A DNA stretch of 64,000 nucleotides from Chloroflexota bacterium (GCA_026713825.1 JAPONS010000008.1:10682-74681); one strand, 5' to 3'. Shown: positions 16,719 through 33,214, counted from the stretch's first letter. The notes: a model not told the origin generated them from the sequence alone. Numbers and translations are program-made.

Positions 16719-16786
16719 CAATCCCAATCGCCAACCGTAATTCTTTCACCTCTGATTTATCCAACCAATTGCGCAGCAAAGAGATC

Positions 16787-16846
16787 CCTTCCCCCTCGGG
16801 GGGGGGGAAGGTTAGAGCCTGCCCCGCACTCGATACGGGATGGGGG
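16787..16846. repeat. Hairpin repeat HP-C (CCTTCCCCC-loop-GGGGGAAGGTT...GGATGGGGGAG) carrying a 25-nt internal insert
   Basis: Same ends as the copy at 14379-14413, but AGAGCCTGCCCCGCACTCGATACGG is inserted between GGGGGAAGGTT and GGATGGGGGAG. Confidence 0.7.
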
Positions 16847-16899
16847 AGCTCTCTCACCTTACTCCCAGCACCCCCATTCACTCCTGCCCCACCCTACCT

Positions 16900-16922
16900 G
16901 TCGTTCCTGCGAAGGCAGGAAC
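16900..16922. repeat. Hairpin repeat HP-A, short form
   Basis: GTCGTTCCTGCGAAGGCAGGAAC has stem TTCCTGC/GCAGGAA and is related to the copies at 17079, 16984, 23664 and 28067. Confidence 0.7.
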
Positions 16923-16983
16923 CCCGACATACCCATCCCCCTCCGCGCCCGTCCCCTTCCGTCTCCCTCGCCCACCCGCTACC

Positions 16984-17034
16984 GTCATTCCCGCGAAGCT
17001 TGCCCCGTACCCCGATACGGGGGCGGGAATCCAG
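16984..17034. repeat. Hairpin repeat HP-A with a second hairpin nested in its loop
   Basis: GTCATTCCCGCGAAGC[TTGCCCCGTACCCCGATACGGGGG]CGGGAATCCAG. A near-identical composite lies at 28067-28117. Confidence 0.8.
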
Positions 17035-17078
17035 AATCCCCGCGTCCAACCACATCCGCCAAACCCTCCCACCTCACC

Positions 17079-17105
17079 GTCACTCCTGCGCAGGCAGGAA
17101 TCCAG
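17079..17105. repeat. Hairpin repeat HP-A, uninterrupted
   Basis: GTCACTCCTGCGCAGGCAGGAATCCAG followed by AGGGGCG, the same tail as at 23603 and 23713. Confidence 0.75.
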
Positions 17106-17170
17106 AGGGGCGGAAAGGCAGGGCACCCTCACCAAAGACAACCCTCGCCTTCCCCCTCCCAATTCGCCTC

Positions 17171-17195
17171 CATACCGGCGGAGGCCGGTATCCAG
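17171..17195. repeat. Hairpin repeat HP-B (CATMCCGG-loop-CCGGKATCCAG)
   Basis: CATACCGGCGGAGGCCGGTATCCAG; sister copies at 23579-23603 and 28175-28199. Confidence 0.75.
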
Positions 17196-17285
17196 GTGCG
17201 GCGACGCGGGGCGTCCCCTCCTCCAACCCACTCCCCACCCCCGCCACCCCGCACCGGCATCCAACATGGCGCACACCAATCCCCG

Positions 17286-17294
17286 TGCTATACT
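17286..17294 (+). promoter_or_regulatory. Extended -10 promoter TGCTATACT for argF (near-leaderless)
   Basis: TGCTATACT ends 9 nt before ATG 17304. No SD in between. Confidence 0.45.
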
Positions 17295-17303
17295 GTCATA
17301 GCT

Positions 17304-23477: not shown

Positions 23478-23578
23478 CGAGGCAAAGCTGCACAGGGACA
23501 ATTATCGGCTGTCCACTACCCGTCGTCCCCACTACCTCCGCCCCCGCCAGCACACGCCGACCCACACAACCCAGCCTC

Positions 23579-23603
23579 CATCCCGGCGGAGGCCGGGATC
23601 CAG
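23579..23603. repeat. Hairpin repeat HP-B
   Basis: CATCCCGGCGGAGGCCGGGATCCAG followed by AGGGGCG. Confidence 0.75.
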
Positions 23604-23663
23604 AGGGGCGCCGCGTGGGGCAACTCTGCCACGGCCCACCTCCGATACTCCACCCCCATTCGC

Positions 23664-23713
23664 GTCATTCTTGCGCAGGAAGAGCCTGCCCCCGCGAAAG
23701 CGGGGGAATCCAG
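23664..23713. repeat. Composite hairpin repeat (HP-A 5' half + GAGCCTGCCCC module + CCCCCGC-GAAA-GCGGGGG hairpin + AATCCAG tail)
   Basis: GTCATTCTTGCGCAGGAAGAGCCTGCCCCCGCGAAAGCGGGGGAATCCAG followed by TGGGGCG. Confidence 0.7.
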
Positions 23714-25730: not shown

Positions 25731-26855
25731 CTAGCCCACCACGGTCGCGCAGATGACGTAGACCTCCAGCGTCCAACTGCCGCTCTGCTCCGACGTCTCT
25801 GCCGCGCTCGCCGTCCAGCCCAGCGGCTTGTCGCCGGGCACGCCCGTCCGCGCCGACGCCGGCAGGCTCACGCCTGCGCTTGCGCCCGTGATGCTCGCGC
25901 CGCCCGCGACCGCGAACAGGTCGCTGCCCGCGTCCGCGCACATCGCCGAGGCGGACTTGTCGTCGCTCGTGGAATCCGAGCTGACCTTCACAAGGGTCAG
26001 GTTGCTGATGCCGGGTTCACCCTGGACGCCCTGCGGGCCGTGCGGGCCCCCAGCGCCCGTGAGGCCGGGAGCGCCGCGTTCGCCGGCCTCACCCTGCGGG
26101 CCGCGCTCGCCCTGCGGGCCCTGCGGGCCAATCGCTCCGGGCGGGCCCATGACGCCCTCGTCACCCTTGATGCCCTGCGGGCCGGTCGGGCCTTGCGTCC
26201 CGGTCTCGCCCTGCGGCCCCTGCGGGCCAACCTCGCCCTGCGGGCCGCGCTGCCCGGGCGGGCCCTGCTCGCCCTGCTCGCCCTGGATCCCCTGGGGGCC
26301 CTGGATCCCCTGCGCGCCGACCAGACCCTGCGGACCCGGAGCACCAATCAGGCCCTGCGGGCCGGTCGGGCCTTGCGGTCCTATCGGGCCTGGCGGACCG
26401 CCGGCCGGGCCTCTCGGACCCTCCGGGCCTGCGGGACCTATCGGGCCCTCGGGACCTATCGGGCCGCGCTCACCCTGGGGACCCTCCGGCCCGGGCGGGC
26501 CGCCCTCCGGGCCGCGCTCACCCACCGGGCCTTGCGGTCCCTCCGCGCCAGTCGCGCCCTGCGGCCCGCGATCGCCCTCCGCCCCCTGCGGACCCTGCGA
26601 CCCCTGCGGGCCTGCCGGACCCCGAAGTCCAGGCGACCCAATCGGCCCCTGGGCTCCGTCCTGCCCCGCCGCTCCCGTCGGACCCTGCGGGCCCGTCGCC
26701 CCTTGCGGGCCCGCGACCCCTTGCGGGCCCGTCGGACCCTGATCGCCCGTGCACGCCGGGAGCAACAGGAGGCCCATCAGGAGGAGAAGTGGGATCCAAA
26801 GACTGCGCCGCCAGACGCTGGAAGACTTCAGGTGCTTCGTATCGACTACCCTCAT
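25731..26855 (-). CDS. Collagen triple-helix-repeat lipoprotein with ~95-aa C-terminal globular domain
   Basis: ORF trimmed to ATG 26855 behind an AAGGAAGG SD. It has a signal plus lipobox (LLLLPAC), then roughly 85 Gly-X-Y triplets ([19 protein letters not shown]...), then a non-repetitive tail ending [14 protein letters not shown]. Confidence 0.85.
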
Positions 26856-26893
26856 GGTGAGCGTACCTTCCTTAAGGAGTTTTTCCGTTTGCA

Positions 26894-26922
26894 AGACTAC
26901 TATAGCCGCCTACCTGTGTCAA
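26894..26922 (-). promoter_or_regulatory. Promoter TTGACA-17-TAGTCT for the collagen-like gene
   Basis: Minus strand: consensus TTGACA (26922-26917), 17-nt spacer, TAGTCT (26899-26894). Confidence 0.5.
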
Positions 26923-27055: not shown

Positions 27056-27895
27056 CTAGCTCGCACGCCGACGCCGCGCCCACACCAGCCCCAGCAGCCC
27101 CAGCCCCGCCAGCAGCACGTACCCGTCCGCCCGCGACCCCTGCCCGCACGTCCCCGGCTCGTCCGGCTCCGGCGTCGGCGTCGCCTCCACCTCCGGTGTC
27201 GCCGTCGGCGTCGCCGTCACGATGATCGGCGGCAACGGCGTCGGCGTCGGCGCCGGCGTCGCCGTCGGCTCCGGCGTCGGCACAGCCGTCGCCGTCGGCA
27301 CTGCCGTCGGCGATGGCGTCGGTGTCTCCGTCGCCACAGCCGTAGCCGTCGGCGATGGCACAGGCGTCGCCGGGACCGCCGTCGGCGTGGCCGTTGCCGC
27401 CGGTGTCGGCGTCGCTGTCGGATCCGGCGCCGGCGGCAGCGCCGGGAACGTCAGGTTGAACCCGTCCACGACGTTCGGTCCCGGAATGAACGTCGCCACC
27501 TCCGCCGCCGTCAGCCCCTCCGGCCCCAGGTGCGCCGTGATCGTGTTCTCCACCGCGATGATGTGGAAGCTGATGTTGCGGAAGTTGAACACCACGTTGG
27601 TGGGCCCGACGATGAGGTTCTGGTACTCGCCGTTCCTGGTGGCCCGCGGCCGCGACTCGTAGCCGTCGATGACGGGGCTGGGGCTCTCTATCCGCGCGAC
27701 GACCATCAGCCCTTGTGGCGCGGCCTCTCCCCCGACCGTCACCGTGCCCGAGTACGTGACCGGGCCCGGCGGCGGCTGTCCTCCTATCTGGGCCTGGACG
27801 TCCCGCCCGCCAGCCAGCGCAAACGCCAGCAGCGCGGCAAAGACGGCAAACGTCAGGATGAGGGCAACCCTGGTGCGGTGTGCTGCAAGTAGCAT
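27056..27895 (-). CDS. Secreted protein: signal peptide, ~125-aa domain, Pro/Thr-rich linker, Cys-containing C-terminal TM + Arg-rich tail
   Basis: ORF trimmed to ATG 27895. Signal MLLAAHRTRVALILTFAVFAALLAFALAGGRDVQAQ, linker ...PTATPTPAATATPTAVPATPVPSPTA..., and C-terminus ...PEPDEPGTCGQGSRADGYVLLAGLGLLGLVWARRRRAS. Confidence 0.75.
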   Translation of the reverse strand: MLLAAHRTRVALILTFAVFAALLAFALAGGRDVQAQIGGQPPPGPVTYSGTVTVGGEAAPQGLMVVARIESPSPVIDGYESRPRATRNGEYQNLIVGPTNVVFNFRNISFHIIAVENTITAHLGPEGLTAAEVATFIPGPNVVDGFNLTFPALPPAPDPTATPTPAATATPTAVPATPVPSPTATAVATETPTPSPTAVPTATAVPTPEPTATPAPTPTPLPPIIVTATPTATPEVEATPTPEPDEPGTCGQGSRADGYVLLAGLGLLGLVWARRRRAS

Positions 27896-28001
27896 GGTCT
27901 TCTCCCGTATCTGAAAGCTCACCAACAGTGAGCCATATTCGTGGCCTTCCCGGGTGGACGCCGCTCAAAACACAACGGCCCGGTCAGCCGACCTGTACAG
28001 G

Positions 28002-28030
28002 ATTATCCCCGCTCACCGCGCATTGGTCAA
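28002..28030 (-). promoter_or_regulatory. Promoter TTGACC-17-GATAAT for the Pro/Thr-rich protein gene
   Basis: Minus strand: TTGACC (28030-28025), 17-nt spacer, GATAAT (28007-28002). This predicts a ~100-nt leader. Confidence 0.5.
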
Positions 28031-28066
28031 GAGGCGGGAGTCGTCTACCCCTCATACCCCTTCTGC

Positions 28067-28117
28067 GTCATTCCTGCGAAGCATGCCCCGTACCCCGATA
28101 CGGGGGCAGGAATCCAG
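28067..28117. repeat. Hairpin repeat HP-A with nested hairpin (twin of 16984-17034)
   Basis: GTCATTCCTGCGAAGC[ATGCCCCGTACCCCGATACGGGGG]CAGGAATCCAG. Confidence 0.8.
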
Positions 28118-28174
28118 GGCCCTCACCCCCAACCCCCATCGAAGCCCCTCAGCACCCCCACACCCCCTACCCCT

Positions 28175-28199
28175 CATACCGGTGCATACCGGTATCCAG
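28175..28199. repeat. Hairpin repeat HP-B variant
   Basis: CATACCGGTGCATACCGGTATCCAG. Confidence 0.7.
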
Positions 28200-28280
28200 A
28201 AACCCCGCACCCCAACCCCCTCCGCATCACCCAGCTCCCCCCCACACACAACGCCAAGCCCGCCCCCCAGGCAAATCGAA

Positions 28281-28312
28281 GGGGGCCTCCCCCCGCGAGG
28301 AGGGAGGCCCCC
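28281..28312 (-). terminator. Hairpin terminator downstream of the giant surface-protein gene
   Basis: GGGGGCCTCCC...GGGAGGCCCCC has 11-bp arms. The minus strand continues TTCGATTTGCC. Confidence 0.5.
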
Positions 28313-28344
28313 AATTGGCCTTGCCTTGGCGATGCTACGGGGCG

Positions 28345-31932: not shown

Positions 31933-32060
31933 CGCGGGCGGACGCCAACGCGGGATAGCCACCTCCTTTCGGCGGCTCACCGGCGCCCCGCCCCCCCAGG
32001 GGCAGACGCGATGCAGCGCTCGCCAGTCTGTACTCCGTCACCTGGACCTTCTTTCTTAGC

Positions 32061-32083
32061 CCTGTCCTGAGGCTCTCGAAGGG
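32061..32083. repeat. Repeat R-D variant
   Basis: CCTGTCCTGAGGCTCTCGAAGGG. Confidence 0.75.
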
Positions 32084-32123
32084 CCCATCGGCCATAGCCA
32101 ACAACACGGCACAGCCCAAAGGG

Positions 32124-32146
32124 CCTGTCCTGAGGCTCTCGAAGGG
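32124..32146. repeat. Repeat R-D variant
   Basis: CCTGTCCTGAGGCTCTCGAAGGG, identical to 32061-32083. Confidence 0.75.
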
Positions 32147-32199
32147 CTCCTCAACCCTATAACGGAACCCCGCCAATGTTTGTTCCACCACCCCGGCGG

Positions 32200-32427
32200 C
32201 TAGCCCTGGAAGGCGGCAAACCCCCCAATGATGGCGGCGGCAAGGACCACCGCCCCGCCTAACACCGCCAGCGTCAGCCGGTCGATGCGGGCGTTGACGG
32301 CGGCGATAGCCGCCGTGTGGACGCGCTGCTGCTCTATCACCATCTCCAACAACCCCTCCAGCCGCCCAACACGAAGGGCAAGCTCCTGGGCCTGCTCGGT
32401 CTGCGGTGGCTGCTGCTGCGTCGTCAT
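32200..32427 (-). CDS. Small tail-anchored coiled-coil membrane protein, paralog 1 (75 aa)
   Basis: MTTQQQPPQTEQAQELALRVGRLEGLLEMVIEQQRVHTAAIAAVNARIDRLTLAVLGGAVVLAAAIIGGFAAFQG. A GGAGG SD precedes it, and it has its own extended -10 promoter. Confidence 0.65.
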   Translation of the reverse strand: MTTQQQPPQTEQAQELALRVGRLEGLLEMVIEQQRVHTAAIAAVNARIDRLTLAVLGGAVVLAAAIIGGFAAFQG

Positions 32428-32450
32428 CGCCGGTCACGCCTCCGTGGGGA

Positions 32451-32459
32451 AGTATACCA
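32451..32459 (-). promoter_or_regulatory. Extended -10 promoter TGGTATACT (paralog 1)
   Basis: Minus strand GTGGTATACTTCCCCACGGAGGCGTGACCGGCG-ATG. Confidence 0.5.
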
Positions 32460-32491
32460 CAAGCAGGCGGGGGAGCCGGGCGGGAACGGAG

Positions 32492-32740
32492 CTAGCCCTG
32501 GAAGGCCGCAAACCCCCCGATGATGGCGGCGGCAAGGACCACGGCCCCGCCCATCACAGCAAGCGTCATCCGATCAATGCGCTCGCTCAGCCGGTCGATG
32601 CGGGCTTCCAAACGGTCCATGCGATCGCTCAGCCCCCGCTGCTGCTCTATCACCGCCTCCATCAACCCCTCCAGCCGCCCAACACGAAGGGCAAGCTCCT
32701 GGGGCTGCTCAGTCTGCGGCTGGTCCTGCTGCGTCGTCAT
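32492..32740 (-). CDS. Small tail-anchored coiled-coil membrane protein, paralog 2 (82 aa)
   Basis: MTTQQDQPQTEQPQELALRVGRLEGLMEAVIEQQRGLSDRMDRLEARIDRLSERIDRMTLAVMGGAVVLAAAIIGGFAAFQG. The ends are near-identical to paralog 1 and the centre differs by one heptad. Confidence 0.65.
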   Translation of the reverse strand: MTTQQDQPQTEQPQELALRVGRLEGLMEAVIEQQRGLSDRMDRLEARIDRLSERIDRMTLAVMGGAVVLAAAIIGGFAAFQG

Positions 32741-32763
32741 CGCCCCTCACGCCTCCGTGGGGA

Positions 32764-32772
32764 AGTATACCA
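32764..32772 (-). promoter_or_regulatory. Extended -10 promoter TGGTATACT (paralog 2)
   Basis: Minus strand GTGGTATACTTCCCCACGGAGGCGTGAGGGGCG-ATG, the same leader as paralog 1. Confidence 0.5.
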
Positions 32773-32789
32773 CACCCCCCACCCCCAAC

Positions 32790-32816
32790 CCGTTCGCCCT
32801 GAGGGAAATCGAAGGG
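32790..32816. repeat. Repeat R-D (CCGTTCGCCCTGAGGGAAATCGAAGGG)
   Basis: Exact 27-mer shared with 33069 and 33162. Confidence 0.8.
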
Positions 32817-33068
32817 CCCACCCTGACACAACCCCCTTGCGACTACACCCCCAACCCCGCTACCCTCCCCCCATGTCGACTAAAGCCCCAACCACCAACG
32901 CCGCCGCCATCACAACAGGCGCCCCCGAAAACCCCCAACCAGAGGCCAAAATGCAAAAAAAATTGGACTCCAACCTAAAATCCGACACATCCCCTACAAA
33001 ACAAACCAGAAACAACCTCCCCCCCACCTACGGCGTTCCGACGCACAAATACCAAACCAATCCCCCTC

Positions 33069-33097
33069 CCGTTCGCCCTGAGGGAAATCGAAGGGGG
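33069..33097. repeat. Repeat R-D
   Basis: CCGTTCGCCCTGAGGGAAATCGAAGGGGG. Confidence 0.8.
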
Positions 33098-33134
33098 AAC
33101 CGGGGCCCGCAGGCCCGCCGGCGTCGGGGTTGGG

Positions 33135-33190
33135 CCGTTCGCCCTGAGGGAAATCGTTGGGCCGTTCGCCCTGAGGGAAATCGAAGGGGG
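33135..33190. repeat. Two tandem R-D copies (first truncated)
   Basis: CCGTTCGCCCTGAGGGAAATCG-ttggg-CCGTTCGCCCTGAGGGAAATCGAAGGGGG. Confidence 0.8.
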
Positions 33191-33214
33191 AACCTGACCC
33201 CCCGCACCCCAGCC

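Follow-up and report, generated by a model that had tools for sequence, protein, structure and literature searches.

The question that this locus raises is how one and the same mini-hairpin comes to lie in the loops of two distant copies of a larger hairpin repeat. The window analyzed here is a 64,000-nt stretch of DNA from a Chloroflexota bacterium (GCA_026713825.1, JAPONS010000008.1:10682-74681; positions are counted from its first nucleotide), and the elements in question are two composite hairpins at 16983..17034 and 28066..28117, both on the plus strand, each a copy of a repeat called HP-A with a smaller hairpin nested in its loop. We find that they are a loop-expanded variant of a known hairpin repeat, the CGTC-1 repetitive extragenic palindrome (REP), which was redefined in 2025 as the NTS (consensus CGTCATTCCCGCGMAVGCGGGAATCYRG) or Ssn-related motif (SRM) (PMC11893778). 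To the full reading, namely that the composites are loop-expanded NTS/CGTC-1 copies whose loop cassette spreads from loop to loop while recognition by the nuclease Ssn is kept, we assign a probability of roughly 60%.

Anatomy of the composite hairpins

A sequence-only reading of the window had proposed that the same insert occupies two HP-A loops and is itself a hairpin with a 7-bp stem, and both proposals hold. Exactly two copies of the 23-mer TGCCCCGTACCCCGATACGGGGG are present in the window (17001-17023 and 28084-28106), both on the plus strand and both inside the loop of a CGTC-tagged 8-bp inverted repeat, and the inner palindrome CCCCGTA/TACGGGG is present in both copies. Beyond these, no site in the window comes within five errors of the 23-mer, and none of 100 shuffled controls contained a match even at three mismatches; none is expected by chance. 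From sequence layout, DNA fold and comparison with the orthologous site of a close relative (locus L123), composite 1 can be divided into the tag CGTC (16983-16986), the 5' arm ATTCCCGC (16987-16994), a loop remnant GAAG (16995-16998), a leader CTTG (16999-17002), the inner hairpin with its stem CCCCGTA (17003-17009) and TACGGGG (17016-17022) around the inner loop CCCCGA (17010-17015), the 3' arm GCGGGAAT (17023-17030) and the tail CCAG (17031-17034). Composite 2 has the same tag, GAAG loop and tail, with arms ATTCCTGC (28070-28077) and GCAGGAAT (28106-28113), the leader CATG (28082-28085) and the inner hairpin at 28086-28105.

The two composites, of 52 nt each, differ at three positions, two of which compensate each other as one base pair of the outer stem (C-G in one composite, T-A in the other). 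Their surroundings are unrelated: the 60-nt flanks reach identities of 48% and 58%, where random spacer segments give 53 +/- 6%, so that the extended identical flanks by which the sequence-only reading would have recognized a simple duplication are absent, and segmental duplication is ruled out as the origin of the two copies. The DNA fold energies of the composites are -13.9 and -12.7 kcal/mol, compared with -5.9 kcal/mol for the uninterrupted copy, which had been placed near 17079 and is found at 17078..17105 on the plus strand (CGTC ACTCCTGC GCAG GCAGGAAT CCAG; three substitutions relative to the NTS consensus). In the predicted fold of the composites both stems are stacked on the 3' side, with an 8-nt bulge on the 5' side. 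A filled hairpin is thus modeled as a bulged 15-bp hairpin, in which inner stem and host 3' arm are directly stacked and 8-13 nt bulge out on the 5' side.

Two further arrangements that had been connected with the same insert are only partly as first described. One had been seen as a diverged relative inside a second hairpin, HP-C; the module GAGCCTGCCCC is indeed present at 16815, but the diverged module CCCCGCACTCGATACGGG (16822-16839) lies 3' of the HP-C hairpin (16787-16811, within 16787..16856, plus strand) and not inside it, preceded by the leader AGAGCCTG (16814-16821) and followed by ATGGGGGAGCTCT. A like arrangement, with an intact core of the mini-hairpin, is found in loci L003, L020, L066 and L102. 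The loop of the HP-C hairpin itself contains a ten-G run (CCTTCCCCC TCGGGGG GGGGGAAGG, 16796-16808), which is possibly a slippage-prone tract; homologs elsewhere have TCGAC or TGAT instead. The other arrangement, said to join two half-elements at 23682, is here called composite 3 (23663..23713, plus strand). It does contain the module GAGCCTGCCCC, but its leader AGCCTG, which follows the 5' part of an HP-A, carries a different inner hairpin (CCCCCGC GAAA GCGGGGG, 23689-23706), flush with the host 3' end GAATCCAG. In the relative L121, composite 3 is accompanied by an uninterrupted HP-A with the same downstream flank.

Relationship to the CGTC-1 and NTS repeats

CGTC-1 REPs have been defined by an unpaired CGTC tag (variants TGTC and CCTC), an 8-bp stem starting with AT, a 4-nt loop and a CCA tail; they include dRS3 of Neisseria and RPE-6 of Rickettsia, and have no associated transposase (PMC3733652, 2013). 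By its sequence, HP-A is such a CGTC-1 REP, and hence an NTS or SRM, a membership that the sequence-only reading missed. When the 24 nt at 16999-17022 are removed, composite 1 matches the Neisseria NTS consensus exactly, as does the empty ortholog in L123, including the C after the palindrome, and composite 2 without its insert shows two substitutions, which are a compensated pair. The tag is CGTC at 16983, 17078, 23663 and 28066, TGTC at 16899, and CTCC or CCTC on sister hairpins. The 8-bp stems have complementary A/T at positions 1 and 2 (ATTCCCGC/GCGGGAAT, ATTCCTGC/GCAGGAAT and ATACCGGC/GCCGGTAT), and the copies in the window end in CCAG (CCCG in the degenerate copy at 16899..16926). Of the loop criterion, composites 1 and 2 depart, with loops of 28 nt in place of 4. 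In the surveyed loci described below, 120 of 234 hairpins have the loop GAAA, GAAG, GGAG or GCAG and are empty copies with a 4-nt loop.

The enzyme that acts on these repeats, SsnA, is a 94-aa GIY-YIG nuclease that binds the NTS as single-stranded DNA (ssDNA), on the top strand only, and cuts a few nucleotides upstream; it needs no particular loop sequence and tolerates both removal and extension of the loop, even an extension that lengthens the stem (PMC11893778). Because the loop is dispensable and extendable in this biochemistry, and the tag, arms and tail of the composites are untouched, we infer that the composites would still be substrates of an Ssn nuclease.

Distribution of the loop cassette

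An exact scan for the 20-nt core CCCCGTACCCCGATACGGGG, with one genome per species, listed at least 120 loci (L001-L120). The genomes surveyed are mostly metagenome-assembled genomes (MAGs), with many chromosome-level assemblies among them. The core is identical at 20 of 20 positions in these loci, most of which belong to MAGs of Dehalococcoidia or other Chloroflexota; further carriers are two Binatia genomes, the isolate Dokdonella sp. MW10, and MAGs labeled Gemmatimonadetes, Gottesmanbacteria, Desulfohalobiaceae, Enterobacteriaceae and Gammaproteobacteria. The viral contigs of IMG/VR do not contain the core and the plasmids of PLSDB do not contain the composite; no vector emerged from these searches.

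Anchoring on the core alone gives at least 131 instances. Arms with perfect, flush 8-nt complementarity surround 67 of the 131 listed cores, arms with one mismatch 23 and with two mismatches 14, and the remaining 27 have no such arms. The 90 copies embedded with at most one mismatch compare with 37.7 +/- 3.8 for permuted partners; CGTC is the tag in 54 of them and CCA the tail in 71. Among the matches listed, the host arms fall into 13 types when perfect and 23 types at one mismatch or fewer. What recurs in these hosts is a cassette of 24-28 nt, made up of a leader (GCATG, (A)GCCTG or GCTTG, GAACGTCA, or GGTCC) and the hairpin CCCCGTA-CCCCGA-TACGGGG, at the 3' edge of the host tetraloop. Its placement is regular: in filled CGTC-type hairpins (n=106) the distance between the 3' foot of the inner hairpin and the 3' arm of the host is 0-1 nt in 93, and the 5' side holds 8-13 nt in 96, made up of the leader and a loop remnant (GAAA, GAAG, GCAG, GTAG, or longer). 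Host loop lengths are accordingly bimodal, either 4 nt or 27-32 nt.

Variants of this layout are also found. In L051, L057, L059 and L119 the cassette runs opposite to the tag and tail of its host and keeps its geometry on the other strand, and in L074 and L088 it occurs as a tandem double. In L022 (4305-4360) a normal leader is followed by a hairpin whose inner loop is inverted (CCCCGTA TCGGGG TACGGG), which looks like a signature of template switching across the hairpin. The same 13-nt loop-plus-leader GATCGAAAGCATG accompanies both CCGG and CCCG stems in OZ253568.1, and hybrid arm pairs, with one arm from each of two variants, are seen in L043, L072, L077, L097, L109 and L113. In OZ240223.1 and in the DAOUJQ MAG the composite lies within a longer repeat with shared flanks, and an identical 51-nt composite is found in Binatia, Gemmatimonadota and Chloroflexota. 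Core copies in other contexts occur in other palindrome families, always behind the leader AGCCTG, and one of these contexts is the HP-C arrangement described above. The window also holds a second palindromic family, at 32060-32150 and 32790-33201 (CCGTTCGCCCTGAGGGAAATCGAAGGG four times and CCCTGTCCTGAGGCTCTCGAAGGGC twice), relatives of which host the same mini-hairpin in L005 and L062.

Other mini-hairpins occupy the same loop position beside ssn genes in unrelated metagenomes. For example, the loop content is GAAG-CTTG-TCCTCGC GAAA GCGGGGA in L153, L158 and L161, GGAG-CCTG-TCCCGGA CCCCGA TCCGGGA in L173 and L184, and CCCCGTA CTTTGA TACGGGG in L164, and one to three tandem ATACCC(T)AAAGGGCAT units are present in L160 and L204. 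The nesting of hairpins in these loops is a general phenomenon, and composite 3 of the window belongs among these other mini-hairpins.

Gain, loss and array expansion in close relatives

Relatives of the window genome were graded by ArgF homology, with identities measured for L121 and L123-L126. The spacer between pcm and argF, which holds composite 1 in a hairpin array and spans 585 nt in the window (16719..17303, plus strand), is 47-53 nt long and has no hairpins in L124-L126 (ArgF 89-91%) and in L209-L211, and reaches 254 nt in L123 (ArgF 96%), 622 nt in L208 and 978 nt in L121 (ArgF 98%). The dnaJ-grpE spacer is likewise about 100 nt long and without hairpins in the 89-91% group, 380 nt long in the window and 1531 nt in L208 (11718-13248), where it contains 12 units with a two-hairpin period of 181 nt; for the prmA-dnaJ spacer the lengths are 96 nt (window), 479 nt (L122, 5170-5648) and 1277 nt (L123, 9429-10705). 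The same intergenic spacers thus differ more than 10-fold in length among close relatives. The lack of arrays in the 89-91% relatives and the growth of the L208 spacer with a 181-nt period show that the hairpin arrays are recent and expand by tandem amplification.

The sequence-only reading had called for a comparison of orthologous loci, and this comparison reveals both empty and filled sites. The site of composite 1 is empty in L123 (4402-4428), where it reads CGTCATTCCCGCGAAAGCGGGAATCCAG; the alignment with the window consists of a single 24-nt gap with 27 identical nucleotides before it and 12 after it, and no target-site duplication is seen at the boundaries of this insertion or deletion. 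The last hairpin before argF, at 17168..17195, is empty in the window and in L122, and its counterpart in L121 is filled with GCATG plus the core. In L207, which shares its contig with L121, the site of composite 2 is filled and the inner loop lacks 1 nt, and in the corresponding spacer of L208 the cassette sits in an ATACCGG hairpin while the HP-A is empty. Of about 50 units within the clade of the window, about 5 hold the cassette, and these represent four different sites and three types of host. In L121 and L122 the region corresponding to window positions 16983-17078, which in the window holds composite 1 and the spacer downstream of it, contains a truncated HP-A, with GTCATTCCTGC joined to CCTTCCAACC or CCTTTCAGCC; this truncation is probably a deletion with one end inside the 5' arm.

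Strand bias and Ssn-like genes

With local GC skew taken more than 600 nt away from any hairpin, in loci L001-L120 and the window, the top strand, which SsnA recognizes, coincides with the C-rich strand for 82 of 101 hairpins (p = 1.7e-10), and for 36 of 47 loci when each locus has one vote. Orientation is neutral with respect to the flanking genes (57 hairpins co-oriented and 45 opposite), and the association with skew is present in both classes. The strand bias of the hairpins is tied to GC skew and not to transcription. In most bacteria G-richness marks the leading strand; assuming the same for these genomes, the lagging-strand template would contain the cleavable strand less often. The bias could reflect selection against self-cutting of exposed single strands at forks, or replication-coupled spread. 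An orientation bias is not mentioned in the paper on Ssn (PMC11893778).

Ssn-like genes lie among such hairpins in close relatives. In L207 a 95-aa GIY-YIG gene (485-772) has two CCTC-ATACCGGC-GCAT hairpins on either side, and in L208 (OX638292.1) a 94-aa GIY-YIG gene (2142-2426) is located between HP-A copies. Further hairpin-flanked GIY-YIG genes are present in L074 (5141-5431), where an HP-A with two cassettes and an empty HP-A lie upstream and their inverted equivalents downstream, and in L005; Pfam assigns PF01541 to all four. While a strict motif scan of the surveyed loci for GIY-YIG found one gene only, tblastn found four, and among metagenomic ssn loci 72 of 80 have such hairpins in their flanks. 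The gene of L207 is part of a 678-nt block (326-1003) made up of two hairpins, the 95-aa ssn-like gene and two more hairpins. This block, bounded by the direct repeat GGGTTGGGGG, is cleanly absent from the window (~32740-32810), and is a presence/absence polymorphism of an IS-like (insertion sequence-like) hairpin-ssn-hairpin cassette.

Origin and spread of the cassette

The sequence-only reading had left two alternatives, spread of the entire composite or entry of a mini-element into the hairpin loops of other repeats, and each holds in part. The transferable unit is probably the loop cassette and not only the whole composite, because the same content is found in many arm types and host families, including contexts other than HP-A that had been named as decisive, because it is precisely present or absent at orthologous sites, and because loop-plus-leader types are specific to genomes across different arms, hybrid arm pairs exist and the inner loop can be inverted. 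Whole composites also spread as a unit with their surroundings. Most likely, the cassette would be copied from hairpin to hairpin at the level of single strands during replication of the arrays, by template switching or gene conversion with the shared arms and the cassette itself as homology, and with nicking by Ssn as a possible trigger. The composites would then be amplified with the arrays and occasionally be transferred between lineages.

Several points weigh against this account. The 24-nt difference is not polarized, as an insertion or a precise deletion, since L121 and L122 are truncated at the site and the distant relatives have no array. The survey was seeded by an exact 20-mer, which biases the frequencies and hides variation in the inner stem. 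No ssn gene is found by tblastn within the 64-kb window, and the link of the window genome to Ssn rests on its relatives; of SsnA, only cutting is known, and not joining. The analysis brought up no sign of an enzyme activity, an excision product or a target-site signature. The amplification of composites with their flanks in OZ240223.1 and the DAOUJQ MAG, and the recurrence in OX638292.1 of the stem/leader pairing seen in the window (CCCG with CTTG, CCTG with CATG), fit descent of whole composites.

A transposition-like insertion is an alternative that we consider unlikely. In this view an enzyme specific for ssDNA, either a GIY-YIG nuclease of the Ssn type aided by ligation by the host or an enzyme of the HUH/Y1 class, would release leader and hairpin together as a very small, non-autonomous mobile element, by cutting at a fixed distance 5' of the cassette hairpin and exactly at its 3' foot, and the released piece would enter extruded hairpins where the loop meets the 3' arm. 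The fixed and flush right junction, the discrete leader classes, the rare reverse copies that keep their geometry on the other strand, the tandem double cassettes and the presence of the core in unrelated host palindromes are all compatible with such a process. The leader GAACGTCA holds a CGTC tag of its own with 3 nt before it, as upstream cleavage would leave, and would under a mobile-element interpretation mark where a cut was made 3 nt upstream of that tag. However, the target is not duplicated, DNA joining is not known for any enzyme of this system, and 1.07 Mb of loci showed neither a RAYT (REP-associated tyrosine transposase) nor an IS200-like gene. In OZ253568.1 the core is accompanied by the entire 13-nt loop-plus-leader GATCGAAAGCATG, which is better explained by copying of loops than by insertion into GNRA loops. 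That the 24-28 nt cassette is an independently mobile ssDNA element, homing to the loop/3'-arm junction of Ssn-type hairpins and processed by nucleases of the Ssn family, accordingly seems doubtful to us; if true, it would be among the smallest mobile elements conceivable, and would offer a first handle on how transposase-less CGTC/NTS repeats move within genomes and between phyla.

The gene families that recur near the core in the 120 loci are only housekeeping genes and an IS110-family transposase, the only recurrent transposase; no Y1 transposase emerged from these neighborhoods, which do not amount to a whole-genome search. The IS110-family genes of L052 (2480-3700) and L116 (640-1800), with PF01548 and PF02371, have an end, CAACTGTCTTG(A/G)A(A/T)GTCAAG, that abuts other hairpin repeats after GCGAG or CTCAG, and those other repeats thus probably act as IS targets. 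In L006 and L108 the IS110-family gene is several kb from the core. As a mobilizer of the cassette the IS110 transposase is rejected, being inserted in other repeats or located several kb away.

Somewhat less probable again is a reading with one or a few ancient fusions, in which the composite originated rarely and moves only as a complete hairpin, together with its array or by horizontal transfer, while host stems become diverse through compensatory mutation or through conversion by empty copies. This reading would explain the flanks shared in OZ240223.1 and in the DAOUJQ MAG, the 51-nt composite found unchanged in Binatia, Gemmatimonadota and Chloroflexota and the stem-leader pairing common to the window and OX638292.1, and the 37 of 104 embedded copies with one or two arm mismatches could be intermediates. 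It is difficult to reconcile with the same loop content in 13 perfect arm types and in unrelated palindrome families, with an empty orthologous site that has identical arms and flanks, and with four filled sites in three host types within one narrow clade.

A local de novo origin, through fold-back or template-switch duplication of the host's own stem-loop with the shared sequence being convergent, is very improbable for the core. It draws on the inner hairpin TCCTCGC GAAA GCGGGGA, which nearly copies its host in L153, L158 and L161, on the tandem inner hairpins of L160 and L204 and on the inverted inner loop of L022, but convergence cannot explain a core that is unrelated to the host arms and identical at 20 of 20 nt across at least 120 loci and several phyla. 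Lastly, a structured RNA element selected at the transcript level, which the intergenic location, the sense orientation in the pcm-argF spacer and the compensated stems might suggest, is rejected on the orientation statistics (the hairpins follow GC skew, with no relation to gene direction at 57 against 45), and has next to no probability given also that in two of the window's three spacers the hairpins run antisense to the genes on both sides, that copy number varies between near-identical strains, and that Rfam yields no match (a tRNA alone passes the gathering threshold, and the spacer gives nothing credible at E <= 1).

The preferred account, loop-to-loop copying of a cassette that leaves the Ssn site intact, bears on repeats that are abundant in many bacteria and whose partner nuclease Ssn was described only in 2025. 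The natural loop-expanded form mirrors the engineered extensions that SsnA tolerates, with an about two-fold higher predicted hairpin stability. Gain or loss of the 24-nt cassette and of whole arrays between near-identical strains is recent and precise, and extends to the 678-nt block; because cassettes, arrays and this block all differ between near-identical strains, the system is active and open to population study. The 20-nt core common to Chloroflexota, Binatia, Gemmatimonadota and others points to inter-phylum exchange of very small repeat modules.

Other features of the window

Empty hairpins also lie in the three window spacers. Besides the uninterrupted copy at 17078..17105, the pcm-argF spacer contains a degenerate HP-A at 16899..16926 (TGTC GTTCCTGC GAAG GCAGGAAC CCCG), of which the same variant is found in L121 and L208, and the CTCC-tagged sister hairpin at 17168..17195 (ATACCGGC GGAG GCCGGTAT CCAG). 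Another CTCC hairpin lies at 23576..23603 (ATCCCGGC GGAG GCCGGGAT CCAG), and a CCTC hairpin at 28172..28199 (ATACCGGT GCAT ACCGGTAT CCAG) is of the type that flanks ssn in L207; all of these are on the plus strand. Composite 2 shares with the last of these the spacer 27926..28344, between two minus-strand genes. The spacer of composite 3 likewise lies between minus-strand genes, and pcm and argF are both on the plus strand. All hairpins of the HP-A kind in the three spacers point in one direction, with C-rich segments of 51-70 nt between them.

Among the neighboring genes, one of 1144 aa is 100% identical to the NCBI protein OXC99_00675 and its next-best match is only 70% identical; it evolves too fast to yield close orthologs. 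HrcA corresponds to MCY4623510.1. A gene at 25731-26894 on the minus strand contains about 31 imperfect repeats in a 9-nt register of the GGCCCGCAGGG type, consistent with a collagen-like Gly-X-Y protein, and is followed by a gene for a Pro/Thr-rich secreted protein (27056-27925, minus strand). Beside the repeat-rich region lies a tandem duplication of about 290-310 nt, with copies at 32199-32461 and 32491-32774 that are 89-92% identical and a small 82-aa minus-strand open reading frame (32492-32740) inside.

Comparison with known repeat systems

Hairpin repeats are preferred targets of certain ISs, such as IS1397 and ISKpn1, which insert in REP loops, and members of the IS110/IS1111 family. 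These elements are of kilobase size and encode their own transposase, while the cassette described here is non-coding and has only 24-28 nt. That size is also far below that of miniature inverted-repeat transposable elements, from which the cassette differs further in having no duplication at the 24-nt insertion or deletion and no related IS. Palindrome-associated transposable elements, the mini-elements of IS200/IS605, have distinct left and right subterminal hairpins and insert 3' of a fixed tetra- or pentanucleotide; the cassette has a single hairpin and follows a GNRA-type remnant (GAAA, GAAG, GCAG or GTAG), or a longer one, and no TnpA was found; and with CGTC as the tag, not GTAG, the host hairpins are distinct from REPINs (REP doublets forming hairpins) and their RAYTs. 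Neisseria intergenic mosaic elements, which are intergenic arrays of dRS3-type hairpins alternating with repeat units of 50-150 bp and variable in length between strains, belong to another phylum and have other spacer repeats, and are not known to include nested loop hairpins.

With the CGTC-1 REPs the hairpins share the tag, the 8-bp stem starting with AT, the 4-nt loop of the empty copies, the CCA tail, the intergenic location and the lack of a transposase. CGTC-1 repeats have been described as having loops of 4-5 nt, as occurring mostly as head-to-head dimers and as found mainly in Alphaproteobacteria (PMC3733652). The repeats studied here, in contrast, are from Chloroflexota, form long direct arrays with spacers of 44-78 nt, in a single orientation and with up to 12 units in place of head-to-head dimers, and have loops of 28-33 nt in about 10% of the units. 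Large clusters of CGTC-1 are an exception known from Neisseria and Wolbachia (PMC3733652). With the NTS/SRM they share the consensus, the strand orientation of tag and tail, the intergenic clusters and, in close relatives, the flanking of a 94-95 aa GIY-YIG gene, while natural loop-expanded copies with a conserved nested hairpin and a GC-skew bias are not part of the published account (PMC11893778).

We found no description of nested loop cassettes in CGTC/NTS repeats in the literature, the nearest precedents being the GTAG-3 and GTAG-14 REPs and REPs inside palindromes. In GTAG-3 and GTAG-14 (E. coli and Bradyrhizobium) short- and long-loop forms likewise coexist in one family, and the inner part of the long loops is also paired, over 6-7 bp and up to 27 bp (PMC3733652). 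These REPs differ in their GTAG tag and in belonging to a RAYT-associated superfamily, and their loop extensions are specific to each family, unlike a cassette that crosses families and phyla. A regular palindrome within a palindrome is also formed by the nested REPs of T. roseum (GTAG-23), A. variabilis (GTAG-15) and H. neapolitanus (CGTC-1) (PMC3733652). In those cases the REP is the guest, whereas in the window it is the host, and the smaller palindrome is the guest at the 3' edge of its loop.

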